From NCBI GenBank assembly GCA_037127955.1, contig JBAXXI010000001.1:9217-73216 (forward strand): a stretch of DNA of 64,000 nucleotides, given 5' to 3'. Positions within the stretch are counted from its first letter, which is position 1. Each line of letters begins with the position of its first letter. This DNA is from Candidatus Berkelbacteria bacterium (lineage in GTDB: Bacteria; Patescibacteriota; UBA1384; UBA12157). Below the pieces are notes generated by a model. It saw nothing but the letters and a program-made list of their open reading frames with translations. It did no database searches and had not been told where the DNA came from. Positions 1 to 14,754 of this stretch are shown piece by piece. A program made the position numbers and the translations under genes.

Positions 1-302
1 AACTTATTATTTCCGGTTTTTGCCTTAAGACCTGCCAAGCCGCGACCTATACATAAATCACAAGGAGCAAAATTGAGATCGCCTACCGGTGCTCTCACGC
101 TCATTAAAACGTCACCTTTATTTGCAAGTTTTGTAACCTTTTTTGTATATGTGTCGAAGCTAGGATATAAAATACCGAATGTTCTGTTTCCTTGTAAAAA
201 TGGAACACCTTCAAAATCAGAATAATAAATAGATTCTGGCGATTGCCCTTGCACTACAAGAGCAACATTTGAAAGCTTGGTTTTGAAACCCACTCTAGTC
301 AT
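1..302 (-). CDS. hsdS: Type I restriction-modification specificity subunit HsdS, N-terminal part; gene continues past the window start
   Basis: Manual translation of the minus strand from the ATG at 302..300 gives MTRVGFKTKLSNVALVVQGQSPESIYYSDFEGVPFLQGNRTFGIL...LMSVRAPVGDLNF. The QGQSP...PFLQG and SVRAPVG blocks are typical of HsdS target-recognition domains. The ATG overlaps the hsdM stop (ATGACTAG). It is not in the ORF track because it is under 60 aa and partial. Confidence 0.75.
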   Translation of the reverse strand, partial: MTRVGFKTKLSNVALVVQGQSPESIYYSDFEGVPFLQGNRTFGILYPSFDTYTKKVTKLANKGDVLMSVRAPVGDLNFAPCDLCIGRGLAGLKAKTGNNK

Positions 303-1905
303 ATTTTAATCCATTTAACTGTTTTTTAATTTCAGATTCTAGATTTTTTGAGTCGGTGAAAAGCTCATTCAAATTCTTTTTATAGTCATCGATCTTACTA
401 GAAAATTGTTCTGGTGTGATATCTACATACTCAATTTTGACATCAAAATATTGCCCGGCTGATAACGAATAATTCTTTTCTTTAATCTCGCTATATTCAA
501 TAACAACAGAAAAATTTTCGATTGGCTCTTTAGTCTTGAAAGCAGAAATAATTTTTGATTCATCTTCACAGCTAAGTAGAGTTTTCTGATTTTTGCCATC
601 TTTTACTTTTTTCCCAAGTTTCGAAGCATCGACTAGCACAACTTTATCAGTGTTAGTTTTGTCGATAAAAAGAATGGACACATTCGTACCGGTAGTCGCA
701 AATATATTCGATGGCATCGAAACAACACCCTTAAGCCATTTCTTTTCTACTAATTTCTCACGAATCTTTTTTTCAATCCCGCTCTGCGCGGTAATAAAGC
801 CGGTAGGCACAACAATGGCCGCTTTTCCGGTATCATTCAGGCTCCGCATAATGTGTTGAATAAACAGTAAATAAATTGACATTTTGTCTTTGTCTTTATT
901 TGGGGTATTCGGTATGCCGGCAAAAAAACGCTCATTAAACTGTGGCAGTGATTCTAGATCATCACGCCAATCCGAGAAGTCCAATTTGAAAGGCGGATTG
1001 CTTACAATGAAATCCATCTTCTGTGGATGGCGATTGTTAAGAATTGTGTTACCTTGCACAATATTGTTGATACTATGGCTGAGACCATTTAGAATCAGGT
1101 TTAACCGTAAAAGGTTTGATGATTTCTGGCTGATGTCTTGGCTGTAAATCGTGCTTTTATCTGTGCCGATTTTACTCGCAATATTCATAAGCAGTGTTCC
1201 AGAGCCGGCACCTGGGTCGTAAACCTTCACATTTGTTGGCTTTGAATTACCTACAAGAATTTCCGCCATAACTTTAGCGACTGAATGAGGGGTGAAATAT
1301 TCGGCATATTTGCCGCCGCCGTCCTTGTTATAGTCCTTAATCATATACTCAAAAAGCGTTGAGAAGAAATCGAAGCCAGCTGAAAAAATGTCATCAAAGT
1401 TAAACTTGCTGTCGGCCAGTTTGTTGATAATGGATTTTGCAACAGCGTTGTGTTTTGAACGATCGGAAACAGCACTCTGTATGAGCTGTTCTTCAAACAA
1501 ACGAATCTCTGTTTTGCCATCTGTATGAACTGAGAAAACTGCGGAGTTAGTTACAGCAATATCGTTGAGCGTATCGTCAAATTTTTTAGCAAAATCAGAG
1601 TCTTCTTGATGTTTAAAAAGATAAGATAGCAGATGTTCCGGTTTTAAATGGGCTGAATTGTTTCCAAGTTTCATTAATAACAAACCGTATTCATTATTAC
1701 TCAGCTTTTTTAAGTCATCATATGTTTGAAGCGATGAATCAATTTTTGAAACTTCGTAAATGAATCTATCGTTTAAAAACTTGTAGAGGAAACATTGCGT
1801 TACAATTTTATATTCATTCGCATCACCACCAAGACCATTGTGAGCACAAATAGCCTTTATATCATCAACTAATTGTTTCGTTTTATTGTTATACTCTGTT
1901 TCCAT
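295..1905 (-). CDS. hsdM: Type I restriction-modification DNA methyltransferase subunit HsdM (N6-adenine)
   Basis: 536 aa. SAM-binding motif DPGAGSGTLL, catalytic NPPF (FIVSNPPFKLDFSDW), and a HsdM-type N-terminal domain. Start overlaps the hsdR stop (TAATG at 1905). Confidence 0.92.
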   Translation of the reverse strand: METEYNNKTKQLVDDIKAICAHNGLGGDANEYKIVTQCFLYKFLNDRFIYEVSKIDSSLQTYDDLKKLSNNEYGLLLMKLGNNSAHLKPEHLLSYLFKHQEDSDFAKKFDDTLNDIAVTNSAVFSVHTDGKTEIRLFEEQLIQSAVSDRSKHNAVAKSIINKLADSKFNFDDIFSAGFDFFSTLFEYMIKDYNKDGGGKYAEYFTPHSVAKVMAEILVGNSKPTNVKVYDPGAGSGTLLMNIASKIGTDKSTIYSQDISQKSSNLLRLNLILNGLSHSINNIVQGNTILNNRHPQKMDFIVSNPPFKLDFSDWRDDLESLPQFNERFFAGIPNTPNKDKDKMSIYLLFIQHIMRSLNDTGKAAIVVPTGFITAQSGIEKKIREKLVEKKWLKGVVSMPSNIFATTGTNVSILFIDKTNTDKVVLVDASKLGKKVKDGKNQKTLLSCEDESKIISAFKTKEPIENFSVVIEYSEIKEKNYSLSAGQYFDVKIEYVDITPEQFSSKIDDYKKNLNELFTDSKNLESEIKKQLNGLKYD

Positions 1906-4900
1906 TAGTTTTCTCCTTTATATTCGCTAGTATACTCATCAGCCAGAATATCTCTTATCCGGCCTGCATTTGCGACATCAAGAACTGGGACTTGTGAATT
2001 CTCAAAACTATCGACTGTAGCCTGACCGATAAAATTAGAGAAATAACCATCATTATCAACCAAGTTTTTGTTTTTACCAAGTTTCTCGGCTATCAATTTT
2101 TTAATATCTGATAGCACATCGAACAAAGGCTGATTTTGGTTGACACGACCAGTCGGTTCAAGCAATTTGAAGGTGCGGGCATACTTACGGTCACCGTCAA
2201 ATTTCTCAAGTACGACTTGATTCTTGCGGTTTAGCTCTCGGATTCGATCGTAAATGTGTTTTAACTCGGTTGAAGCATATTCCATCTTTTCTTTATTGCC
2301 ACTAGCTTCACTTTCATTGTATTCAGAAAGCAGGCGAGTGAATTCCTCGTATAAGGTTACCCATTCTGGGTCTTTCTGATTATAGTTCCTATCCAGTTCC
2401 AAGCGAGTGTTCCGGGCAATCTCCTGTAAATCATTTGCCAACAGCTTTAACTCTTCTTCGCCAGTCTTAGTAAATTCAAAAATTACTCCCTCGATAGCAG
2501 TATTGAGTAGTTCCTTACTATTAATATCATTTGTAGCATCCTTTAAATTGAGGAGCTTCAAGCGATTACTAACTTCGGTAAGCAATTTGGCAATGAGTTT
2601 AAAATCAATTTTTTCAAGGATTTCTGTGTAACCTAGCAGCCTCGCAATATTATATATATCGCGTGCCGACTCTAGCGATTTCTTTAATTGATTTATTGTT
2701 TCTTTGTCGTTAATTGCACTTATTTGACGACTGAAGGTTTCAAGATTATCTGTTGAGAATTCGGAAAGCATACTTAAAACAATAGCGATCTCTTCATCAA
2801 TTTCAGACTTACTCATAAAAAGTGAACCAAAAATGTTGTTTGGATCATCGTTTTCATCCATACCTTCGCTATATTCACGATTCAATTCGTCAAAGTAGGC
2901 CTGGTTGGTGACTTCGAACTCTTTGCTGATATCAGCAAAATCCACTACATAGCCAATGCGAAAATCACGGTATGGTCGGTTGACGCGTGTGAGTGTCTGT
3001 AATAGATTATGGGCGCGTATTTTTCTACCGAGATAGAGTTTCTTAAGTCTTGGAGCATCAAAACCGGTTAGAAGCATTGAATATACAAACAATAAATCCA
3101 GTTTACCGTCTTTAAAGTCTTTGATTTCCGTTTCGCGTGTTTCTTTATCATCTTCATCATGGAGAATAAGGGCTGCTTTAAGACCATGTTCACTAGATTT
3201 TTCATTAAACTGTCGAAACATTTCGCGCGCTTGATCAGAGCTATCTGCTACAACCATACCCCCAATAGTTTTGTCCCCGAAACGAATGCGAGAATTTTTG
3301 AAATCCTTAATAATGTATTCGAGCATTGGATCGACAAAGTTACTATGAGATCGTATTTCTTTACGATCAATCGAACCGAGTTTAGTTTCTATTTCATGAA
3401 CAATCTCGTTTAACTTGGCCTTGTAACTCGTTTCAATTTCTTCGCGCAGTAGCTTTAAAGTATATCCATCTTTGATCGAATTATTATAATAATATTTATG
3501 AATGTAGTTACCAAAAATATTGCGAGTAGTTCTTACATCTTGCTTATCACTTAGCTCTTCGTCATCTTCTTTATGTTCACCGTAAACTATTAGCGGTGTA
3601 CCGGTAAGCGCAATTTTAACAGCTGATTTGTCGGAATTATATAGATTAGCGAGAAATGATCCTTTTGGATCATAGCTTCGATGGGCTTCATCGATAAAAA
3701 ATATACGTTGAACATTAATATCATAGCCAGAATTGTTAAATGCGGTAGTGTCATCTTTAAATTTTTGTATATTCACGACCGTAATACCGGCTGTAGTAGT
3801 GTTTGAGGCAAAATCACGCACTAGTGATTCTTTGTTGTCGATAGTCTGTACTTCAAGACCGCGCTTTCTAAATTCATTGCGAGCTTGTTTTGCTAAATCT
3901 AGGCGGTCAACTATAAAATAGAATTTTGAAATAACACCTTTTTTGGCGTAGTAATCGGTCAAATATTTAACACCATAGTAACTCAAAGCGGTTTTTCCAG
4001 ATCCTTGGGTGTGCCATATAATACCGCGATCATTGCCTGCGTCCAAATAGCGTGCAATAGCTTTTGTTGCAAAAAATTGCGGGTAGCGCATAATGTGCTT
4101 TTGAATAACCGTCTCGCCGGTTATTTCGTCAATCTCATCAACATACGCGATACCATATCGAAGAATCATGATGAGACGTTTCTTTTCGAATAAAGAGCTA
4201 ATAACTCGATTGGTTGGAGCATCAATATCTTTATTACTGATAAACTCTGGCGAGTGTTTTATAACTTCGAGATTAGTGTCTCTTAATACAAAATCTTCGA
4301 CTACTTCGTCGAGGTTGTGAATTTCATCAATAATCTCGCTCTTTCGTTCTTCGCGAAAATTGTTAAACTTTGCACGAGAGTTCTTGGCAGTAGTCGCGTA
4401 GAATGCACCCTGAAGCTGATCGGCAGTTGTATCGTCGTATTCCATATTGTTTGAAAATACGAGCAATTGGGTAATATTGATAAACTTACGAAACTTTTCG
4501 TTTGCAAACCGCATGTTGATACGGTCACGCTCAGCCTTGATACCTTCTGGGTTGTTTGGTTTCTTCACCTCTATGAAAGCCAGCGGCAAACCGTTAATAA
4601 AGATTGTGATATCTGGTCGGAACTCATCTTCTCCATTTTTATTGGCGAGTTCGGTCGTAACAAGATATGAGTTTTTTTCTGGATTTTCAAAATCTACTAG
4701 CTTATAATTTCCTCCGTCCGTGCCGATGAGTTTTTTGTAAAATTCTCGCCCCAAGTCATCATTGCCAAGAGATTGCTTTACATCAGAAAAAAATCCATCG
4801 AACTCACCATTTTGCGAGTCTGTGATGTTATTTATTTTATTAAACTGATCACGAAACTCATTCACAATAATACTTGTTTCGGGATCAATATTATAATTTT

Positions 4901-5000
4901 TGTCTTTCAGAGAGAAGTATTTGTAGCCTAAACGAGTAAAATGAAGTAACGATGGAATCTTTACTCTAGAATCCTCTGAAAATGAATTATCTTTTGCCAT
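1905..5000 (-). CDS. hsdR: Type I restriction enzyme R subunit HsdR (SF2 helicase-nuclease)
   Basis: 1031 aa. Walker A HTQGSGKTALS, DEAH box (FFIDEAHRS), an N-terminal nuclease region and a long C-terminal helical domain. It sits directly upstream of hsdM with a 1-nt overlap. Confidence 0.92.
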   Translation of the reverse strand: MAKDNSFSEDSRVKIPSLLHFTRLGYKYFSLKDKNYNIDPETSIIVNEFRDQFNKINNITDSQNGEFDGFFSDVKQSLGNDDLGREFYKKLIGTDGGNYKLVDFENPEKNSYLVTTELANKNGEDEFRPDITIFINGLPLAFIEVKKPNNPEGIKAERDRINMRFANEKFRKFINITQLLVFSNNMEYDDTTADQLQGAFYATTAKNSRAKFNNFREERKSEIIDEIHNLDEVVEDFVLRDTNLEVIKHSPEFISNKDIDAPTNRVISSLFEKKRLIMILRYGIAYVDEIDEITGETVIQKHIMRYPQFFATKAIARYLDAGNDRGIIWHTQGSGKTALSYYGVKYLTDYYAKKGVISKFYFIVDRLDLAKQARNEFRKRGLEVQTIDNKESLVRDFASNTTTAGITVVNIQKFKDDTTAFNNSGYDINVQRIFFIDEAHRSYDPKGSFLANLYNSDKSAVKIALTGTPLIVYGEHKEDDEELSDKQDVRTTRNIFGNYIHKYYYNNSIKDGYTLKLLREEIETSYKAKLNEIVHEIETKLGSIDRKEIRSHSNFVDPMLEYIIKDFKNSRIRFGDKTIGGMVVADSSDQAREMFRQFNEKSSEHGLKAALILHDEDDKETRETEIKDFKDGKLDLLFVYSMLLTGFDAPRLKKLYLGRKIRAHNLLQTLTRVNRPYRDFRIGYVVDFADISKEFEVTNQAYFDELNREYSEGMDENDDPNNIFGSLFMSKSEIDEEIAIVLSMLSEFSTDNLETFSRQISAINDKETINQLKKSLESARDIYNIARLLGYTEILEKIDFKLIAKLLTEVSNRLKLLNLKDATNDINSKELLNTAIEGVIFEFTKTGEEELKLLANDLQEIARNTRLELDRNYNQKDPEWVTLYEEFTRLLSEYNESEASGNKEKMEYASTELKHIYDRIRELNRKNQVVLEKFDGDRKYARTFKLLEPTGRVNQNQPLFDVLSDIKKLIAEKLGKNKNLVDNDGYFSNFIGQATVDSFENSQVPVLDVANAGRIRDILADEYTSEYKGEN

Positions 5001-5002
5001 TT

Positions 5003-7105
5003 TTATTCCTCACTTATTTCGTCTGATTCCCTATTTTTTTGAAAAGATTGTTCTATTAAAGTCATCAAATAATCAATTTGAGTTTCGGAATTAATTTTTG
5101 CTTCTACATTGCCATTACCCCAATGGCCAAGACCAGTTACATCATAAGACATCTTCTCCGGATCGATAATTTCGTTATAATCCATGTTCATACAAACCTT
5201 TAATTGGTTTTTCTGCGGTATAATGTCGACAAAATTCGTACTATTTTTGTAAGCAATATACTTGGCTTTTATAACCTCTTTTACAGAAGAATCAATGTTT
5301 AATATACGCTGTCTCAGTTTATTAAAAAGATCCAAAATATTTCCTTGCAAATATTCCTTATAAATATCTAGTGTATATATTTGTTCCGTTTCATCAGTAT
5401 CGACTTGCTTATATTTTTGAATAATTTCACTTGGCAAGGATGGGGCAATCCAAATTTTCACCGCTTTCACCGCGAGTTCTTTACCTCTTTTGGTAATCTC
5501 TTCTTCGTTCCATGACGGCAAATTTGCTAATGAATAATTCAATCTAATAGGGCTATCTTTGAATCCTCCCTCCATCGATTGTTTATCCGCAAAAGCTTTG
5601 TCGCTCAGTTCGGGATTATAGCCTGTCAATGTTAGGTTTCCGATCGTATGAAGATACTTCTCCTGAATCTCTTTCCAATTATCACCCAAATTGGCCTGCC
5701 ACTCGCTTGATAACTTCGGATTTTGTGGCATTATATGTTCAATTGTGAAGGTATCGACAGATACCTTTTCTTTTCGGCCAAAATTTTCTAATTTGTCTAA
5801 AAGATAATTGCGTCTAGAAAAGTTATATACATCTTTTATAAGAAGTTCGCTCATAAATTCTTCGTCATTTGGGAATCTCCGGTAGGAATCTTTCGCCAGC
5901 AATACCGCCTTAACGCTTTCTAAATAATTATCTCGATCAATAAACTTGGCCAAATTGCCGAAAGTTTTATTCATTGAATTTGTTGGGATACCACAAACTC
6001 CACGTCTAAACACATACGATTCGACTAAACGCAATATCTCGATTAGCTCTTCTTTTATAATTCTATTTTGATCATAATCTTCTAAGACCACCATTAGAAA
6101 TGGATACGCAACATCAACCTTTAGCGTATTAATGTCTTTAATCGTACCCCTTATTTCAGTATCGTTAACTCTCTCAAATGCAAGTTCAACAAAACGCTTG
6201 GAGTGATGATAGACATCGGCAACTATCTCGGAAATCGTTAATTTACAACTACTAGCGTAAACTTTAAAATTTTCATAAATTTGGTTTATATTAGGAATTC
6301 TTCCAGTTTTGATTGTTAAATAATCGCGCATAAATCTATCAAAAAGAACTGAATATTCAGCGTGACCAAAACTTTGTTCCATCGGGTACCATGACTTTTC
6401 ATACACTTCCACTTGATCATCTTGTTCAAGTCCCATTAAAACATAATTACGAATTAAATCAGCTTGGGATAAATCTAGTCCAGTTGAATTGAGACTTTCA
6501 AATATTAATTGTGGATTGTCTCTATCCCTATCAAGAGCTATATCCACGATAATTAGCTTGCTGATTCCCTTGTATAATTCTTCAACATCAATATTCAATT
6601 CTTTTATTTTGTTTATAAAAAAATTATAATTTTCATTTATTCTGCCAGATTGATTTTCTACAGCGCTTCTACCTTCAAGCAAATTAATAAAAGCTTCTCT
6701 GTCGCTTTTGGTTAACATTAATCTGTATTTTAGGTCGCCTTCTTCTTCACTATTAATCAAATAGTAGTTATTTATTTTTCTTTTTGACATATCCGAGGTT
6801 TCATCTTGATCTGCGATAGAATCACGGATTGCCATCATCAATAAAGAAAGGGTGGTTAGCCTTTGCTGGCCGTCAATCACTAGAAGTTTAGAAACAGCTG
6901 CGACCTGATATAGTCCATTTTCAATATAAACGATCGATCCAATAAAATGACCGCCGGTTTCTTCACTTTTTACCGCGCGCAAGATGTCGCTCCAGAGTTC
7001 ATCGCATTGTTTAGTCGTCCAGCTATAGGTTCTCTGGTAAATAGGTATAATAAATTGTTTCGTGCCTTGTAAAAATTTCGTTAGACTTGTTTCTACTGCT
7101 TTCAT
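5003..7105 (-). CDS. DUF262/DUF1524 fusion protein (GmrSD / BrxU / SspE-like type IV modification-dependent nuclease family)
   Basis: 700 aa. N-terminal DUF262 motifs IPIYQRTYSW and DGQQRLTT. C-terminal DUF1524 His-Me-finger motif FTIEHIMPQNP ... NLTLTGYNPELSDKAF. The stop lies 2 nt from the hsdR ATG. Confidence 0.8.
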   Translation of the reverse strand: MKAVETSLTKFLQGTKQFIIPIYQRTYSWTTKQCDELWSDILRAVKSEETGGHFIGSIVYIENGLYQVAAVSKLLVIDGQQRLTTLSLLMMAIRDSIADQDETSDMSKRKINNYYLINSEEEGDLKYRLMLTKSDREAFINLLEGRSAVENQSGRINENYNFFINKIKELNIDVEELYKGISKLIIVDIALDRDRDNPQLIFESLNSTGLDLSQADLIRNYVLMGLEQDDQVEVYEKSWYPMEQSFGHAEYSVLFDRFMRDYLTIKTGRIPNINQIYENFKVYASSCKLTISEIVADVYHHSKRFVELAFERVNDTEIRGTIKDINTLKVDVAYPFLMVVLEDYDQNRIIKEELIEILRLVESYVFRRGVCGIPTNSMNKTFGNLAKFIDRDNYLESVKAVLLAKDSYRRFPNDEEFMSELLIKDVYNFSRRNYLLDKLENFGRKEKVSVDTFTIEHIMPQNPKLSSEWQANLGDNWKEIQEKYLHTIGNLTLTGYNPELSDKAFADKQSMEGGFKDSPIRLNYSLANLPSWNEEEITKRGKELAVKAVKIWIAPSLPSEIIQKYKQVDTDETEQIYTLDIYKEYLQGNILDLFNKLRQRILNIDSSVKEVIKAKYIAYKNSTNFVDIIPQKNQLKVCMNMDYNEIIDPEKMSYDVTGLGHWGNGNVEAKINSETQIDYLMTLIEQSFQKNRESDEISEE

Positions 7106-7108
7106 ATT

Positions 7109-7408
7109 TTATTCCTCAATTTTCGCCCGATTAATAATATTTTCAATGACCCAATATTTATAGCCAGCAATCTCTAAGTATTTATATTCTTTGTCATAAA
7201 ATGGCTTAATGTAACCATTTGAATCTATTTCTCTTACGAACATTTTTATTTCGTCTGATTTGTCTGGATAATCATCGATAACAACATATTCATGCGGAAT
7301 TTCCGGCATGGTTTTGGCAAATGTCCAAGCTAAATGAGAAATTAGTTTTGTAATTTCTTTTTGCAAATTCATTAGCTTTATTTTACGCTTCTGGAGGGAT
7401 TTATTCAA
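7109..7408 (-). CDS. Hypothetical 99-aa protein, first gene of the defense operon
   Basis: ORF track entry with an unrecognised conserved-looking core (WTFAKTMPEIPHEYVVIDDYPDKSDEI...GYKYWVIENI). It ends 3 nt before the DUF262/DUF1524 start codon, so it is likely co-transcribed. An alternative start at MNLQKE is 12 codons downstream. Confidence 0.5.
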   Translation of the reverse strand: MNKSLQKRKIKLMNLQKEITKLISHLAWTFAKTMPEIPHEYVVIDDYPDKSDEIKMFVREIDSNGYIKPFYDKEYKYLEIAGYKYWVIENIINRAKIEE

Positions 7409-7493: not shown

Positions 7494-7712
7494 TTAATCT
7501 CGTCTTTCTTCATTTAGATTGAAACTAACATTTTTATTGTTTATTTGAATTCGGTTTTTGGTTTGCAACTCATTAAAAGCCTGCTGGAAGGTCATTCGTT
7601 TTTCTTTAACCATTCTTTCCAATGTAAAATAAAGAGCCAGCGGCACAGTGTAGCCATCTGCTTTCATTTTTTTATACCATTCGGCAACAGTTTTAAATTC
7701 ATTAATATCCAT
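7494..7712 (-). CDS. Hypothetical small protein (72 aa)
   Basis: ORF track only. Sits in the defense-island gap between the 99-aa gene and the PLD-like gene. No recognisable motif. Confidence 0.3.
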   Translation of the reverse strand: MDINEFKTVAEWYKKMKADGYTVPLALYFTLERMVKEKRMTFQQAFNELQTKNRIQINNKNVSFNLNEERRD

Positions 7713-7796
7713 ATCTTGATTATATCAGAAAGTGGTAAATTATTAATTCAAAAAGTCCATATTTCACAGCAAGCATAGTATGACAAAATCACACTT

Positions 7797-8522
7797 TTAT
7801 TTGTAAAGAAAACTTATCAAGCCGAAAACAAATTTTGCTCCTTTCAACGATACTATTAATACTTTAACGATGGCAAATAACCACCACGCGAGAAACGGAA
7901 CAACTACTCCCAAAAAGAACAATTTGATCTTAGCCAGTTTATTCTCTTCAAGATTCTTGGCCATATTGCGATATAGCCGCTCATACTGAAACTTGTAGGC
8001 TTCAGCCAGCTTTTTGCTTAGCCCCAGATAAGACATAGTTTCTTGCACCAATATCTCATCCGAGATTCGCCTCATCATTTCACGACTTTGTCTTTGCGAA
8101 AGAATATTTAAGCTCCCTTCCCAAAGTATTTCGCGATCAATAATGGCTAATTTTTCATGAACAAATCCTGGCAGATGAGTAATATGGGCGCCGGACTCTT
8201 CATAATCCTTAAGTGCACAAGAAATTTCCGCTTTCATGAAATAATCATGTTCTTCAAGCGGTCTGGTAAAAATAAAAACCGGTATGTTTCTTTTCCGAAG
8301 TTCAATAAGCGTCCGTCTGAAAAATTCCGATCGAAACTTTGAAACAAACGGGCTGTAAATAACCACTTCTTTTTTGGCGGCCAACATATCTTTAACGAAT
8401 GCCTGATAAAAACTCTTTTCATTAAAAAGATTGCCTTTTTGCATTTCTTTCAATTTCTTGGCATCAACTTCATTTTGGATATTTGTAAGATGCTGCCTAT
8501 ATGCCGGTGATTGTCGTAACAT
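7797..8522 (-). CDS. PLD-superfamily single-HKD protein (Nuc/BfiI-like nuclease fold) with a C-terminal transmembrane anchor
   Basis: 241 aa. Canonical HKD motif HEKLAIIDREILWEGSLN (HxKxxxxDx6GSxN). Only one HKD copy, implying a dimer like Nuc. The C-terminal hydrophobic helix is LFFLGVVVPFLAWWLFAIVKVLIVSL. Confidence 0.7.
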   Translation of the reverse strand: MLRQSPAYRQHLTNIQNEVDAKKLKEMQKGNLFNEKSFYQAFVKDMLAAKKEVVIYSPFVSKFRSEFFRRTLIELRKRNIPVFIFTRPLEEHDYFMKAEISCALKDYEESGAHITHLPGFVHEKLAIIDREILWEGSLNILSQRQSREMMRRISDEILVQETMSYLGLSKKLAEAYKFQYERLYRNMAKNLEENKLAKIKLFFLGVVVPFLAWWLFAIVKVLIVSLKGAKFVFGLISFLYK

Positions 8523-8597
8523 TGTGCCCTCCTTAATTTATTTTGATATAGATTATGACTTTGTGTTATACTCGCCTTGTAATATGAAAGGAATAAT

Positions 8598-8816
8598 ATG
8601 AACGAAAAAGAACTTGAAGAAATGTTTGCCAACCCGTTTTATGCTGTTAATATTTTGCCGTCACTTTGCTTGGAACATGAGCCGATGGTCTCCAAGGAAA
8701 CTTGGGTCAAGGCTAACGCTAAGATGATTGACGAAATCGGCAAAGTAGAATGGCTAAAACGACTTCTTGATGTCTTGGAATCCGGCGGCCCGCAGAGCGA
8801 TCAAACGGCTGAATAG
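8598..8816 (+). CDS. Hypothetical small protein (72 aa)
   Basis: ORF track. An upstream TATACT -10-like element at 8562..8567. No recognisable domain. Confidence 0.3.
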   Translation: MNEKELEEMFANPFYAVNILPSLCLEHEPMVSKETWVKANAKMIDEIGKVEWLKRLLDVLESGGPQSDQTAE

Positions 8817-8870
8817 CTAGTTTTCTCTTACTCACTGGCGTTTAGGTGTAAAATCTGCTAAAATAACAGC

Positions 8871-9086
8871 ATGGGTACTGATAATTCTCTAAAAATGAAT
8901 CAAACAATCGGCGAACAGTTCAAAGCAGCTAGGGAAAAACTTCACCTGACCCAATTGGAGGTAGCCGAAAAAGCTGAAATAAGCACTAATTACTACGCGC
9001 AGATGGAACGCGATGAAGTTAATCCCTCAGTTGAAAAGGTGCGAGAAGTTAAAGAAGTTTTAAAAATAAAAGAGATCAAGATATAA
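8871..9086 (+). CDS. XRE-family helix-turn-helix transcriptional regulator
   Basis: 71 aa. LHLTQLEVAEKAEISTNYYAQMERDEVNPSVEKV matches the Cro/C1 HTH pattern. Followed by a hairpin plus T-run at 9208..9227. Confidence 0.7.
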   Translation: MGTDNSLKMNQTIGEQFKAAREKLHLTQLEVAEKAEISTNYYAQMERDEVNPSVEKVREVKEVLKIKEIKI

Positions 9087-9207
9087 ATTTATCCTGATCT
9101 TTGGGTAGATATGCTCTCATAATTTGATCGAGCCACTTCAAAAGGTGTTCGAAGGAAAGTGCATTAAGTCTACCATTCAACCAGCTCATGACGAGCTAAA
9201 TGAAAAT

Positions 9208-9227: not shown

Positions 9228-9232
9228 AGTAT

Positions 9233-9266
9233 TAAAAAATACGATCCAATTGGGTCGTATTTTTTA
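9233..9266 (-). terminator. Rho-independent terminator downstream of the DEAD-box helicase gene (bidirectional)
   Basis: aaaaaat-ACGATCC-aatt-GGGTCGT-attttttaa. A 7-bp stem with one G-U pair, flanked by A-run and T-run. Confidence 0.6.
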
Positions 9267-9280
9267 ATTTAATTTATTTT

Positions 9281-10534
9281 TTAAGCTTGAACAAAAGTTA
9301 AAGCTTTACCAGAACTCGCTCCACGACCAGTTCGACCAATACGGTGAACATAATCATTATAGGTCTGAGGAATAGTATAATTAATCACATGGGTAACATC
9401 TTTAATATCAAGTCCACGAGCAGCTACATCGGTTGCAACCATAATATTAATTGCACCAGTCTTAAACTGACTCAAAGTACGTGATCGCTGTGACTGATTT
9501 TTATTCGAATGAATCGATTCAACCTTAAATCCACCAACCAACAAACTTGAAGTTAAACGCTCAACCTCCATTTTAGTTTCAGCAAAAACTAAAACTCGTT
9601 GAAAATCAGGCGATTTTAAAAGATTGGAAAGATGATCAAATTTAGTTGTTTCATTTTCAAAGCGAACCACATCTTGATCAATATTTTCAGCCGTATCACC
9701 CGTTTTAACCTCAATCGTCACCGGATTTTTCAAAAACTGACCAATAAATCCACGGATTTTGATTGGCAAAGTTGCCGAAAAGAACAATGATTGTCGTTCA
9801 ACCGGCATAACCTTTAACATTTCTGTGATTGTATTAATGAAACCCATATCCAACATACGATCAACTTCGTCCAAAACAATATTATTGAATTCTGGAAGTT
9901 TAATATATCCACGATCAATTAAATCATTTAATCTACCTGGCGTACCAATTACAAAATTTGGCTCACGACGCAAATTACCCATTTGCTTATGGATTGGCGC
10001 GCCGCCAACGCAACAAGCAAAAAAGATACGCATGCCCCAAGAAAATTTACGTAATTCTTCTTCAATTTGAAAGGCCAATTCTCTAGTTGGCGTAATAATC
10101 AAAACTTTTTGGCTTCGATCATTATAAACCTTATTAATTAATGGCAATAAAAAAGCGGCGGTTTTACCGGTTCCGGTATTAGCCAAACCAATCAAATCGC
10201 GTCCATCAAGAATATAATTAATTGACTGATCCTGAATTGGAGTTGGCGATAAATAATTTCTCTGCTTTAAATTGTCTTGTAATTCTTTACAAAACGGGAA
10301 ATCACTAAAAGCATTTTTAATCTCAACGGCAACTACTGGTTTTTTATCAATTGATTTGTTTATAAACTTAGAGACATCGATTCGTTCACCTCTAAATTTC
10401 TGTCTACCAGAATTGCCTCGATTATTTGATCGAGAAAAAGATGGTCTACTATTACCATTAGACATTCCGCTATTAGATCTAAATTTTGAACCTGGTCTAC
10501 GACCGAAATTACCAGCTGAACTGTTTCGTTGCAT
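9281..10534 (-). CDS. DEAD-box ATP-dependent RNA helicase
   Basis: Motifs TGTGKTAAF (I), PTRELA (Ia), DEVDRML (II), SAT (III), HRIGRTGR (VI). The most probable start is the ATG at 10534 (MQRNSS), preceded by AAAGGA 7 nt upstream. The track ORF starts at an upstream TTG. The N-terminal ~60 aa is an S/R/G/N-rich low-complexity tail. Confidence 0.9.
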   Translation of the reverse strand: MQRNSSAGNFGRRPGSKFRSNSGMSNGNSRPSFSRSNNRGNSGRQKFRGERIDVSKFINKSIDKKPVVAVEIKNAFSDFPFCKELQDNLKQRNYLSPTPIQDQSINYILDGRDLIGLANTGTGKTAAFLLPLINKVYNDRSQKVLIITPTRELAFQIEEELRKFSWGMRIFFACCVGGAPIHKQMGNLRREPNFVIGTPGRLNDLIDRGYIKLPEFNNIVLDEVDRMLDMGFINTITEMLKVMPVERQSLFFSATLPIKIRGFIGQFLKNPVTIEVKTGDTAENIDQDVVRFENETTKFDHLSNLLKSPDFQRVLVFAETKMEVERLTSSLLVGGFKVESIHSNKNQSQRSRTLSQFKTGAINIMVATDVAARGLDIKDVTHVINYTIPQTYNDYVHRIGRTGRGASSGKALTFVQA

Positions 10535-10763
10535 GTTTTTTCCTTTGGCACACAAAAAGTGTGCAATTAATTAATTTCACAATTGCAATAATAAAACTTC
10601 GAAATTAATCGGAAATAATATGCAATGCGAGACGCTTACCAACTTACTGGCAAACGATTTGCTCGCAAAATTCTTTTTAAAACTTGAGAGCAAGATATTG
10701 ACTAAAGTATACTATAACACATTTTCAACTAAATGTAAAGAGATAAAGAGTATTTATTTATTT

Positions 10764-11228
10764 TTATTGCGAAACAGAAATAATATTGTTTTCCGCATCA
10801 CAAGCTTTAACGGTTACGATCCCATTTGAATCAATTGAAATTGAATAGCCAGTTAAAGCAGACGTCCCATTTGGATCAATAGGAATAGATTTTAAATATT
10901 TTGACAAGGAAGAAGTTAAATCTATAGCAGATGTTGCAGTAACATTACAACCACCTTTAGAGATCATGGCACCACTTTCAGCGGTACCAATCTGTCTTTC
11001 GGCCATACCAACCAAAAGACCAGTTGGATAAGAACCCTTATTATCTATAAAATATGAATGAACAGCCACTAAAATATTTTGAATATCACTAGCCCGTCGA
11101 GAATCATTGGAATCTTTTAATATTTTTGTCGGCTTAAAAACAATAAAAATTACTACAACCAAAACAGCAACCACGGCGACCGTTAAAATTAGCTCGATAA
11201 GCGTAAAAGCTTTTTTATTCTTGATCAT
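10764..11228 (-). CDS. Type IV pilin / pseudopilin-like protein with prepilin N-terminus
   Basis: Internal start MIKNKKAFTLIELILTVAVVAVL gives the class III signal motif (KA|FTLIEL with Glu+5) and a hydrophobic helix. The track ORF is extended 14 codons upstream. Confidence 0.75.
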   Translation of the reverse strand: MIKNKKAFTLIELILTVAVVAVLVVVIFIVFKPTKILKDSNDSRRASDIQNILVAVHSYFIDNKGSYPTGLLVGMAERQIGTAESGAMISKGGCNVTATSAIDLTSSLSKYLKSIPIDPNGTSALTGYSISIDSNGIVTVKACDAENNIISVSQ

Positions 11229-11395
11229 CAACCCTCCTCTAACTCTTATAATACCTTGACTCAAAATCAATATGAATTTAATATCTAATATAATAATACG
11301 CCAAAATTAACAAAAAATATATACAATCCAATCTGTTTTAGTATTTTAAGCTCTTTAGAGTTTAAAATTAAAAGAAAACCTGTTAAAATATAAAT

Positions 11396-12128: not shown

Positions 12129-13160
12129 TTGAAAAAAATCTTATTAACCCTGTCTATTTTATTAACTTTTAGCCTTGTCTTATTTGTAAACCCTGGTCAA
12201 ACTTTTGCCGCGTCAATTCCAACCACCTTTCAATGGGGCGTGACCATGAGACCTTATGCTCTTGGTAGCTACAGTAAGAGTGGCTGGACTAAACAAATTG
12301 TTAAAGCTAAAAGCCTCGGCGCTGGCTGGGCCAGAATCACCTGGGACTACAACGGCAAGCCTTTCGTCAGGAATACCGAAGTCATTAACACTTTGATTCA
12401 AAATAAAATCAATGTCGTCTTGGTCATTGAACACAACCCAAATGATGGAAACAACAATCTTTATAAAAACGGTTATAATGATGGTAAATGTATTGCTAAA
12501 TACTACAAGAAAAAAGTTGCCTACTACCAATTAATGAATGAAGGTGGCGCTCAATCACTCAAAAACGGTACATCTAATGGTCAAACCATGACCGATTATA
12601 ACGTTAATGAATACAATAAAGTTCGCGACTATATGAAAGGTTTGTCGGACGGTATTTCTGCTGGCGACCCATCTGCCAAAAAGATTGTCACAATCAGCTG
12701 GACCCATGTTGGATTTTTAGATAGACTCGTCAAAGATGGTGTTAAATTTGATATGATTGGCATCGATTGGTACGACTGGATGGGCGATTTTGGTAGCAGT
12801 AAATTATCTAACGGTCAATCGCTTTATGAAAAATTAAAAAGTTACGGAAAACCATTAACTTTTATGGAAGTTGCCGCTATGCCTAAAGGTGCTAATGCCT
12901 CGAGTAAATCTAAAACTATTGTCGACGAGACTAAACAAAATAGTTTTACCATGCAAACTGCCCAATGGGCCTGGGACCATCGCGACACAGTTAAAGGCTT
13001 CTACGCTTTCGAATTAGTCGACAATATTAGCAACCCAAGCCAATACAAAGATTATTATGGTTTAATCCAAGGTGTTAAAAAAGGCTCGAATTACACTTTT
13101 GGTAAACTCAGAAAAGTTTTTACTTCTTATAAAACTTTTATTAAAGCTCATAAAAAATAA
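12129..13160 (+). CDS. Secreted protein, putative TIM-barrel glycoside hydrolase-like
   Basis: TTG start 8 nt after an AAAGGAG Shine-Dalgarno. Signal peptide MKKILLTLSILLTFSLVLFVNPGQTFA. No firm family assignment. Confidence 0.45.
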   Translation: MKKILLTLSILLTFSLVLFVNPGQTFAASIPTTFQWGVTMRPYALGSYSKSGWTKQIVKAKSLGAGWARITWDYNGKPFVRNTEVINTLIQNKINVVLVIEHNPNDGNNNLYKNGYNDGKCIAKYYKKKVAYYQLMNEGGAQSLKNGTSNGQTMTDYNVNEYNKVRDYMKGLSDGISAGDPSAKKIVTISWTHVGFLDRLVKDGVKFDMIGIDWYDWMGDFGSSKLSNGQSLYEKLKSYGKPLTFMEVAAMPKGANASSKSKTIVDETKQNSFTMQTAQWAWDHRDTVKGFYAFELVDNISNPSQYKDYYGLIQGVKKGSNYTFGKLRKVFTSYKTFIKAHKK

Positions 13161-14173: not shown

Positions 14174-14671
14174 TTATTTTTCTTCATCCTCTTCGGTCTC
14201 GTCCTCAATTTCTTCATCATCAGCCTCTTCAACAATCTCTGTAATACTCGGATTGATCTGAGCGGCATATTTTCCATCCGTATCTCGTGACTCATCATCA
14301 GTTTTGTTTTTCTTTGGCAAAAGTTTAGCAACAACCTTAAATTTTCTCACTTCACCTTTTTGATCTTCGATCTCATTGGTTTTGTGATCACTAAAGTACT
14401 CCATTAGCTCAGAAGATAAAATTTCCTCAAGTGTGCCTAACTCATCACGATTTTCTTTAATATCTGAAATTAATTTCTGAGTTTCTGCCTTAGCCCAAAT
14501 CGCGTCTTTAATCCTTTTTTTCTTATCCATCAAAGCTTTGATCTCTTCGCAAACCGCCAAGTAATCAGTATCGTTCTCTAATTCATTCTTCAGGGCCTCA
14601 CGAGCAATTTTGTTCTCATTTTTAAAAGTCTCTAATTGCTCCATTCTCTCTTTAATAATCGAAACGTCCAT
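14174..14671 (-). CDS. Hypothetical coiled-coil protein with an acidic C-terminal tail
   Basis: 165 aa, K/E-rich, poly-D/E C-terminus (EEADDEEIEDETEEDEEK). Confidence 0.4.
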   Translation of the reverse strand: MDVSIIKERMEQLETFKNENKIAREALKNELENDTDYLAVCEEIKALMDKKKRIKDAIWAKAETQKLISDIKENRDELGTLEEILSSELMEYFSDHKTNEIEDQKGEVRKFKVVAKLLPKKNKTDDESRDTDGKYAAQINPSITEIVEEADDEEIEDETEEDEEK

Positions 14672-14754
14672 GTTCTCCTTTTTTATTATTTGTTTTTTAT
14701 TTCAATTGATTAAATATTTCGGATTACTGAAATTCTGTGAATTTACAATAAAAT

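Follow-up and report, generated by a model that had tools for sequence, protein, structure and literature searches.

The stretch of DNA analysed here, referred to throughout as the window, comprises 64,000 nucleotides of a genome assembled for a Candidatus Berkelbacteria bacterium (Patescibacteriota; assembly GCA_037127955.1, contig JBAXXI010000001.1, positions 9,217 to 73,216). The gene of interest, PLD-TM, encodes a protein of the phospholipase D (PLD) family with a single HKD catalytic motif and a hydrophobic C-terminus that includes a segment of transmembrane (TM) length. Divergently from it run two small genes, which encode the acidic protein S72up and a helix-turn-helix (HTH) protein of the XRE family, and downstream of it, on the same strand, lies a third small gene, S72dn. 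These four genes form a conserved cassette. An earlier note on this DNA, made from the letters of the sequence and a list of its open reading frames (ORFs), had described a PLD-family protein with one perfect HKD motif, beside hsd/GmrSD, small ORFs and an XRE gene, and had proposed that it belongs to a defence or abortive-infection module separate from the neighbouring restriction-modification (R-M) operon. The coordinates of all these features are collected in Table 1; loci of other genomes that carry related genes are designated by the letter L and a number.

The PLD-TM gene and its cassette

The PLD-TM ORF begins with ATG, 6 nt downstream of the sequence AAGGAGG. Its product contains the HKD pattern once, and its sole Pfam domain is PLDc_2 (PF13091; 39.2 bits, where the gathering cutoff is 27; E=7.7e-10), which bears out both the single perfect motif and the PLD superfamily named in the earlier note; the neighbouring genes are likewise as it described them. 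That PLD-TM is a genuine gene follows from its 483 homologue clusters (in Berkelbacteria-like Patescibacteria only) and from the 40 invariant columns in an alignment of 31 sequences, and the ratio of nonsynonymous to synonymous change (pN/pS), 0.043 in comparison with a relative that is 89% identical at the nucleotide level, shows that purifying selection on it is strong. The invariant columns include H121, K123, D128, G135, S136 and N138 (alignment numbering, i.e., protein numbering minus one), and 118 of 120 homologues retain the whole motif. With a pI of 9.6 the protein is basic, and its sequence includes just one Cys. In the AlphaFold2 (AF2) model, which has a mean predicted local distance difference test score (pLDDT) of 82, the core is modelled at a pLDDT of about 85-94, and one long helix (residues 167-239) takes in the tail.

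The cassette shares 89% nucleotide identity with that of a metagenome-assembled genome (MAG) of Berkelbacteria, and the flanks are unrelated on both sides. In that MAG, whose PLD is the 95%-identical relative, the cassette is flanked by an RNB gene on one side and hydrolase/GNAT genes on the other, and R-M genes are absent from the vicinity. The conserved unit is the cassette, and adjacency to hsd/GmrSD is not conserved. The idea of a self-standing module that includes an XRE gene and small ORFs and is distinct from the R-M operon stood up, whereas the adjacency to hsd/GmrSD, which had been the main argument for it, is absent beside the cassette of the closest relative. Neither terminal inverted or direct repeats nor a target-site duplication of the 1.65-kb block was found above chance; a 13-nt repeat at 7328 and 9194 is, by our own estimate, within random expectation for AT-rich DNA.

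The product of S72dn is 94% identical in L001 and L006, and the gene is part of the conserved block among the closest relatives only. Over 64 codons its pN/pS is 0.034, and no family match was found in Pfam, PADLOC, NCBIfam or PHROGs.

Table 1. Features of the window, and repeat pairs of diversity-generating retroelements (DGRs) at related loci (nucleotide positions unless marked as residues).
Feature	Position	Strand	Remarks
PLD-TM gene	7797-8522	-	241-aa single-HKD PLD-family protein; ORF and translation
PLD-TM, N-terminal helix	residues ~5-30
PLD-TM, PLD alpha/beta core	residues 34-164
PLD-TM, conserved stalk helix	residues 167-198
PLD-TM, hydrophobic tail (C-terminal membrane-association region)	residues 199-241 = nt 7800-7928	-	43 residues; TM-length segment 201-219, then Lys-punctuated amphipathic segment 220-241
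HKD catalytic motif HEKLAIIDREILWEGSLN	residues 122-139 = nt 8106-8159	-	single regex match to HxK(x)4D(x)6G[ST]xN
Conserved cassette S72dn-PLD-S72up-XRE	7522-9175		1.65 kb; blastn of window against L001, L003 and L006
S72dn	7494-7712	-	72-aa basic protein; 84 bp downstream of PLD, same strand
Divergent control region	8523-8597		75 bp, between PLD and S72up starts; PLD Shine-Dalgarno AAGGAGG and predicted S72up-XRE promoter
S72up	8598-8816	+	72-aa acidic (pI 4.6) helical protein; first gene of S72up-XRE operon
XRE HTH protein	8871-9086	+	71 aa, DNA-binding domain only; Pfam HTH_3 E=1.9e-11
hsdM-like gene	295-1905	-	context, outside cassette
hsdR-like gene	1905-5000	-	context, outside cassette
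GmrSD	5003-7105	-	context, outside cassette; 700 aa
99-aa ORF	7109-7408	-	context, outside cassette
Palindrome	9231-9268		38 nt, just outside conserved block
Helicase gene	9281-10555		outside conserved block
Type IV pilin-like gene	10764-11270
DGR repeat pair, L043	12410-12541 / 12916-13047		mismatches almost solely at one base
DGR repeat pair, L044	3944-4068 / 4435-4559		mismatches almost solely at one base
DGR repeat pair, L014	13905-14028 / 14605-14728		mismatches almost solely at one base
DGR repeat pair, L034	4359-4487 / 5818-5946		mismatches almost solely at one base
DGR repeat pair, L029	7515-7643 / 8327-8455		mismatches almost solely at one base

Kinship of the enzyme and its hydrophobic tail

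Among the defence-system models of PADLOC, the best matches of PLD-TM are the Mokosh proteins MkoC (6.2e-11, to the C-terminal PLD) and MkoB (2e-5), and the match to DrmC is marginal (E=0.012). The NCBIfam model of cardiolipin synthase (Cls; TIGR04265) scores 17.4 bits where its cutoff is 290 (E=0.0017). The sole sequence matches in the PDB, whether the query is the single sequence or the 31-sequence profile, are to PLD6/Zucchini at about 21% identity; the PLD6 entry was deposited as "mitochondrial cardiolipin hydrolase". A Foldseek search with the PLD-TM model ranks mouse Zucchini (1.9e-8), Helicobacter pylori NucT (4e-8), PLD3 and Nuc above the classical lipid PLDs, with a probability of 1.00. 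The next relatives in sequence form two groups: the C-terminal PLD domains (residues ~790-950) of helicase-PLD proteins of ~1050 (~1056) amino acids, which share 36-45% core identity with PLD-TM, match the MkoA helicase (1e-58 to 1e-62) and MkoC (1e-45), and have a Cys-rich Zn-ribbon at their end; and stand-alone PLD domains of ~150 amino acids. All lines of evidence, from sequence and from the modelled fold, point to membership of a nuclease-type clade with the Mokosh PLD domain and Zucchini/PLD6, to which the lipid synthases are not close. The earlier note had weighed a nuclease against a phospholipid-modifying PLD, and this comparison favours the nucleases, the nearest being Mokosh MkoC/MkoB, Zucchini, NucT and Nuc. 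An exhaustive HMMER scan yielded only 11 clusters (at 50% identity) at E<=1e-30, and the narrow PLD-TM family is therefore compact. In public databases the homologues are annotated as hypothetical or, by JGI, as [quoted passage not shown].

Mokosh consists of a COG1112 (Upf1-like) RNA helicase and a PLD nuclease, both of which are needed for defence, and mutating the PLD's active site abolishes defence (10.1101/2022.05.11.491447). The PLD of Mokosh has been linked to PLD6/Zucchini in the literature. PLD-TM resembles Mokosh in that its PLD domain is placed in the same clade, and some Mokosh-II-like helicase-PLD proteins also have an adjacent XRE gene; it differs in its membrane tail, its N-terminal helix and its obligate XRE, and in lacking a COG1112/Upf1-like helicase in the protein and the cassette. 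The helicase portion of one Mokosh-II-like relative, used as a BLAST query (E<=1e-5) against the ORFs of the cassette loci and the first 20 kb of the window, gave no match. Thus, the earlier note's examples, DISARM DrmC and Mokosh, did not hold as systems to which PLD-TM belongs: it matches the PLD models of Mokosh (MkoC, MkoB) and is without the Mokosh helicase, and for DISARM the score of DrmC is marginal and no DrmA/B-like genes are present in the window. DISARM is similar in so far as DrmC is a small PLD-family nuclease in defence loci, and one cassette adjoins a DrmD-like helicase; however, the DrmA, DrmB and methyltransferase partners are missing from the window and from most loci. At a single locus (L008 4981-9222), a 1414-aa Upf1-like helicase of superfamily 1 (SF1; MkoA E=3e-29, PADLOC) lies directly after PLD and the small protein P120 (described below), in a Mokosh-type-I-like arrangement.

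The closest solved structure is that of Zucchini/PLD6, and both proteins are single-HKD and membrane-anchored, with a catalytic domain towards the cytosol (in PLD-TM, as its predicted topology would have it). Zucchini has an N-terminal anchor helix and a zinc-finger insertion, whereas PLD-TM is anchored C-terminally, has a hydrophilic N-terminus and one Cys, and is bacterial, repressor-linked and multi-copy. With Nuc (of pKM101) and NucT (of H. pylori), PLD-TM shares a minimal single-HKD PLD fold of ~150 residues and predicted dimers. Nuc and NucT are exported via a signal peptide; PLD-TM is without one and adds the N-terminal helix, the stalk and the membrane tail. It differs from cardiolipin and phosphatidylserine synthases in having one HKD motif rather than two, as well as in falling far under the cutoff of the Cls model.

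The hydrophobicity of the tail is considerable. The Kyte-Doolittle mean over 19 residues is above 2 for segments that start at residues 199-208 (spanning ~199-226), peaks at 2.5 and stays above 1.2 up to the C-terminus; in 97-100 of 120 homologues, the same measure reaches at least 1.6 in the C-terminal segment. The hydrophobic C-terminus is a family trait. It is also the least conserved region of the protein, with a majority-residue fraction of 0.41, compared with 0.79 in the core, which is the highest. No N-terminal hydrophobic or signal-like segment was found in the 120 homologues (12-residue hydropathy over the first ~35 residues: median -0.62, maximum 0.95). Because there is no signal peptide, and because a stalk helix is followed by a variable hydrophobic or amphipathic tail, the catalytic domain would be expected at the cytoplasmic face of the membrane. 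The strongly hydrophobic C-terminus that had been noted is real, but to call it a single tail-anchor helix was a simplification, as it extends over 43 residues in two segments. The variability of the tail is not that of a DGR variable region: repeat pairs of the template/variable type with adenine-specific mismatches were found at related loci, and none overlaps the PLD gene.

Control, distribution and neighbourhoods

Among 185,579 species-representative genomes scanned, 60 loci were found, of which 44 carry the short, TM-tailed form; these 44 lie in 31 Patescibacteria genomes, and 10 of the 31 have 2-5 copies. An XRE gene of ~70 codons stands divergently upstream of the PLD gene in ~42 of the 44 short-form loci. 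Two arrangements recur. In variant A (16 loci), XRE and the divergent PLD are followed by P120, an unannotated helical protein with forms of ~120 and ~220 amino acids, which is encoded 6-25 bp downstream of PLD (e.g. L042 10729-11091 and L018 10732-11418). In variant B (~10 non-redundant loci, including the window), XRE is accompanied by S72up. P120 and S72up were never found in the same locus among the cassette loci examined. P120 has no Pfam, PHROG or profile match, and it was rejected as a remote relative of S72dn, S72up or the 99-aa ORF (S99), with hhalign probabilities below 1%. At one locus (L032 9989-10711), the PLD gene is split into ORFs of 133 and ~100 amino acids, and is therefore probably a frameshifted, decaying copy.

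The XRE protein, a presumed repressor or controller of the cassette, has a pN/pS of 0.045. In PADLOC it matches capH (9.5e-10) and the R-M Control_protein (2e-4), and the matches of its family include HipB and PezA, which are antitoxins of toxin-antitoxin (TA) systems. XRE genes are also found beside some of the Mokosh-II-like helicase-PLD relatives and some PLDs without a TM segment. Between the divergent genes, a gap of 47-120 bp persists in 40 loci, and the control region is conserved at 47-78 bp. Across the family it contains a strong Shine-Dalgarno sequence for PLD, a CTGGAAA -35-like box and AAATTT repeats, and XRE appears to start leaderless, 8-9 nt past an extended -10 element. In the window, a promoter scan predicts a rightward promoter for the S72up-XRE operon (TTGATA-18-TATACT, extended -10), and the box GAGTATAACACAA (= TTGTGTTATACTC) is conserved in other S72up-type loci. 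The control region is a putative operator.

When the window and the loci, 66 sequences in all, were searched, 13 of them (~10 non-redundant) had a homologue of S72up between XRE and PLD. These proteins belong to a family of 404 homologue clusters of small unannotated proteins, with 11 invariant columns in 44 sequences and a pN/pS of 0.106. S72up gave no match in Pfam, in PHROGs or by fold (AF2 model pLDDT 72; best fold match E>3), and the possibility that it is a fragment of the "Recombinase" domain of serine recombinases is unsupported (a faint Pfam match with E=0.17, and a blastp match with E=0.002 over 43 aa). The S72up-XRE pair is not confined to PLD genes. It is divergent from Septu in L068 3013-5409 (PtuA 1e-166, PtuB 4e-65), from a D12 methyltransferase and an AlwI restriction enzyme in L009 10731-15100, and from a Schlafen/AlbA_2 protein in L073 294-2300; in 80 further metagenomic S72up loci, the divergent gene was a PLD in 12. 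The pair looks like a portable, reusable controller for varied defence cargo. It can be compared with the C-protein R-M units and with CapH, both of which are matched by the XRE; however, the cassette has no methyltransferase or other self-protection gene and no CapP-like peptidase, and S72up has no known family.

The genes that flank related cassettes elsewhere include HpaII R-M with Vsr and an SMC-like ATPase; a methyltransferase with AbiV and a KAP NTPase; and a GmrSD-like protein, SAVED-HNH (7e-137), a DrmD-like SNF2 protein (4e-208), HKD+Snf2, an MkoA-like helicase, HsdR and Fic. Recognised defence genes are present within one or two genes in at least 13 of ~46 distinct loci. A large serine recombinase gene lies just past XRE in 5-7 loci, and in one MAG a 2.8-kb block of serine recombinase, XRE and PLD core is duplicated with 72% nucleotide identity (L017 7749-10465 and L018 7727-10462), which suggests that a serine recombinase can carry the cassette along. 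In ~10 loci, a DGR reverse transcriptase and bAvd are convergent beside the PLD cassette, and the variable regions lie in other genes.

In the window itself, the left-hand neighbours of the cassette are GmrSD and the hsd genes of a type I R-M system. The DEAH and NPPF motifs are visible in the translations of the hsdR- and hsdM-like ORFs; hsdS was not seen in the window beside them and is probably beyond its left end. GmrSD has the Pfam domains GmrSD_N (4e-37) and GmrSD_C (1e-24), as well as an extra C-terminal DUF5655 (residues 583-690), and its top PADLOC model is "Orf5" (E=6e-190) rather than the generic type IV model. The 99-aa ORF, 3 bp upstream of GmrSD and in the same orientation, has no match in Pfam, NCBIfam, PADLOC or PHROGs; as it is outside the conserved block, it is probably part of the GmrSD/hsd operon. 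To the right of XRE, a near-perfect palindrome (17 pairs) with flanking T-runs separates the cassette from a convergent helicase gene, and is probably a bidirectional terminator. The helicase is of the DEAD-box type as judged by eye from its translation, which was not submitted to a family search.

What the cassette may do

No literature on an XRE-PLD-TM cassette, on XRE-partnered PLD toxins or on PLD defence genes in the Candidate Phyla Radiation (CPR) was found in the searchable library. The interpretation favoured here, tentatively and with a little less than even confidence, is that of an autonomous conflict cassette: a dimeric, sequence-non-specific PLD nuclease that would be tethered at the cytoplasmic face of the membrane, under the control of XRE (plus S72up). 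It is preferred because the PLD is of the nuclease type, has a membrane tether and an obligate regulator, and shares its controller with defence systems, and because of the portability, copy number and neighbourhoods of the cassette. In particular, S72up-XRE also heads R-M and Septu systems, which puts the PLD in the position of a defence effector that may be toxic to its own cell and is controlled in the manner of C proteins.

Nuc and Zucchini are homodimers in which two HKD motifs make up one active site, and by analogy PLD-TM would dimerise in the same way. Its transcription would be governed, presumably by repression, by the divergent minimal XRE, which in the variant of the window would be co-transcribed with S72up. 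The tether would hold a sequence-non-specific nuclease (for DNA or RNA) off the nucleoid, and an enzyme so placed could attack nucleic acid during its entry or handling at the membrane, e.g. injected phage DNA. The poorly conserved tail may fit paralogues to different membrane partners.

Such a mode of action has its analogy in SNIPE, a GIY-YIG nuclease bound to the membrane, which cleaves phage DNA as it is injected. The nuclease domain of SNIPE is highly conserved and the membrane-targeting region is not; removal of the TM region renders the nuclease toxic, a minority of homologues bind the membrane without a TM region, and the tether prevents self-cleavage (PMC13190303). The PLD-TM family has the same pattern of conservation, with a conserved catalytic core and a variable tail, and any resemblance would be functional only. 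SNIPE has a DUF4041 domain that binds DNA and the tape-measure protein, a GIY-YIG domain and an N-terminal TM region, and occurs in many phyla; these domains are absent from PLD-TM, as judged by Pfam.

Several points weigh against a conflict cassette of this kind. SNIPE is a single constitutive gene with the phage-sensing DUF4041, whereas PLD-TM is repressor-linked and has no counterpart of that domain, and no phage-sensing component was identified in the cassette. Approximately 20 of 120 homologues (~17%) have a shorter amphipathic basic tail without a TM-length segment. The earlier note had envisaged a defence-island setting, and related cassettes are indeed often found among defence genes; however, a Pfam census of the genes within ~3 kb is similar to that of genes 5-10 kb away, and housekeeping genes such as that for leucyl-tRNA synthetase are among the neighbours, so the association with defence islands, clear in qualitative terms, is not established by statistics. 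In IMG/VR, among the INPHARED phages and in the PLSDB plasmids, no relatives were found. Moreover, the repressor coupling, the multiple copies and the linkage to a serine recombinase fit a toxin or addiction module equally well, and the placement at the membrane could equally mean a phospholipid substrate, PLD6 being annotated as a cardiolipin hydrolase.

In a bolder form, to be regarded as rather unlikely, the cassette would represent a second, independent case of spatial discrimination between self and non-self, in which a PLD nuclease of the Mokosh/Zucchini clade that has lost its helicase would rely on a variable C-terminal tether, as SNIPE does with a GIY-YIG nuclease, so as to attack nothing but nucleic acid that reaches the membrane. 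It would be switched by the portable S72up-XRE pair, which CPR bacteria would employ again before R-M, Septu and other effectors, and the specificities of the several paralogous cassettes of a genome would be set by their tails and accessory proteins.

A TA-like or abortive-infection module, to which we would assign a one-in-four sort of plausibility, would consist of a PLD toxin silenced by XRE; the co-regulator or antitoxin would be S72up or P120. Once the cassette was lost, or the cell infected, repression would be lifted and the cell killed or arrested, and the module would stabilise the mobile island that hosts it, e.g. one borne by a serine recombinase. The obligate linkage to XRE, the 2-5 copies in a small genome, the co-duplication of serine recombinase, XRE and PLD, the differing contexts in close relatives, the occasional decayed copy (as in L032) and the small, mutually exclusive accessory proteins (S72up or P120) beside the effector are all consistent with this, as are the matches of XRE to HipB and PezA. 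In classical type II TA systems, the antitoxin is co-transcribed with the toxin, and binds and neutralises it. The XRE of the cassette, in contrast, is divergent from PLD and not co-transcribed with it, and is a bare 71-aa HTH without a toxin-binding extension; furthermore, the accessory proteins of variants A and B are unrelated, and S72up-XRE also stands at the head of bona fide defence systems. S72up, P120 and S72dn, none of which has a family match, could be binding partners of the PLD. An addiction role overlaps with that of a conflict cassette and does not exclude it.

That the PLD acts on lipids, hydrolysing or remodelling phospholipid head groups of the inner leaflet, whether to disrupt the membrane as an abortive-infection effector or to remodel scavenged host lipids, is distinctly improbable. 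The tail would put the active site at the membrane, and a lipid substrate would agree with the weak match to cardiolipin synthase, the "synthase-like" labels of JGI and the name under which PLD6, the closest solved relative, was deposited. However, a Cls score of 17 bits stands against a cutoff of 290, nuclease PLDs are ahead in the fold search, the relatives nearest in sequence come fused with SF1 helicases and Zn-ribbons, i.e., are nucleic-acid enzymes, and PLD-TM is basic. Being accessory, present in several copies, tied to a repressor and patchy in distribution (31 of ~185,000 species representatives), the family is a poor fit to a housekeeping lipid enzyme.

Least probable of all, and by a wide measure doubtful, is a membrane enzyme like NucT or EndA, which would process DNA taken up by auxotrophic, pilus-bearing CPR cells. 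NucT of H. pylori is a PLD-family nuclease linked to transformation and is among the top fold matches, CPR bacteria depend on external nucleotides, and a type IV pilin-like gene is near; but the absence of a signal peptide predicts a cytoplasmic catalytic domain, the gene is accessory, multi-copy and limited to few lineages, with no conserved linkage to competence genes, and its dedicated repressor is common to R-M and Septu systems. A superinfection-exclusion cassette borne by a phage or plasmid was rejected, as the viral, phage and plasmid collections named above gave no relatives and a PHROG match was found for XRE only.

If the conflict-cassette interpretation is true, the cassette would merge a PLD defence nuclease and a membrane tether in minimal form, i.e., a 241-aa enzyme and a repressor, in CPR bacteria, a group in which hardly any experiments on immunity have been made. 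As a relative of Zucchini/PLD6 that is membrane-anchored and prokaryotic, PLD-TM bears on the evolutionary link that has been proposed between Mokosh and the PIWI-interacting RNA (piRNA) pathway, and S72up-XRE could act as a marker for new effectors in CPR genomes. Should the enzyme prove to attack lipids, or to be an addiction toxin, it would still represent an uncharacterised, strongly conserved family that has been mislabelled as a "cardiolipin synthase-like enzyme". The PLD-TM family is compact, strongly conserved and experimentally tractable, with an unusual architecture, in a poorly studied phylum.

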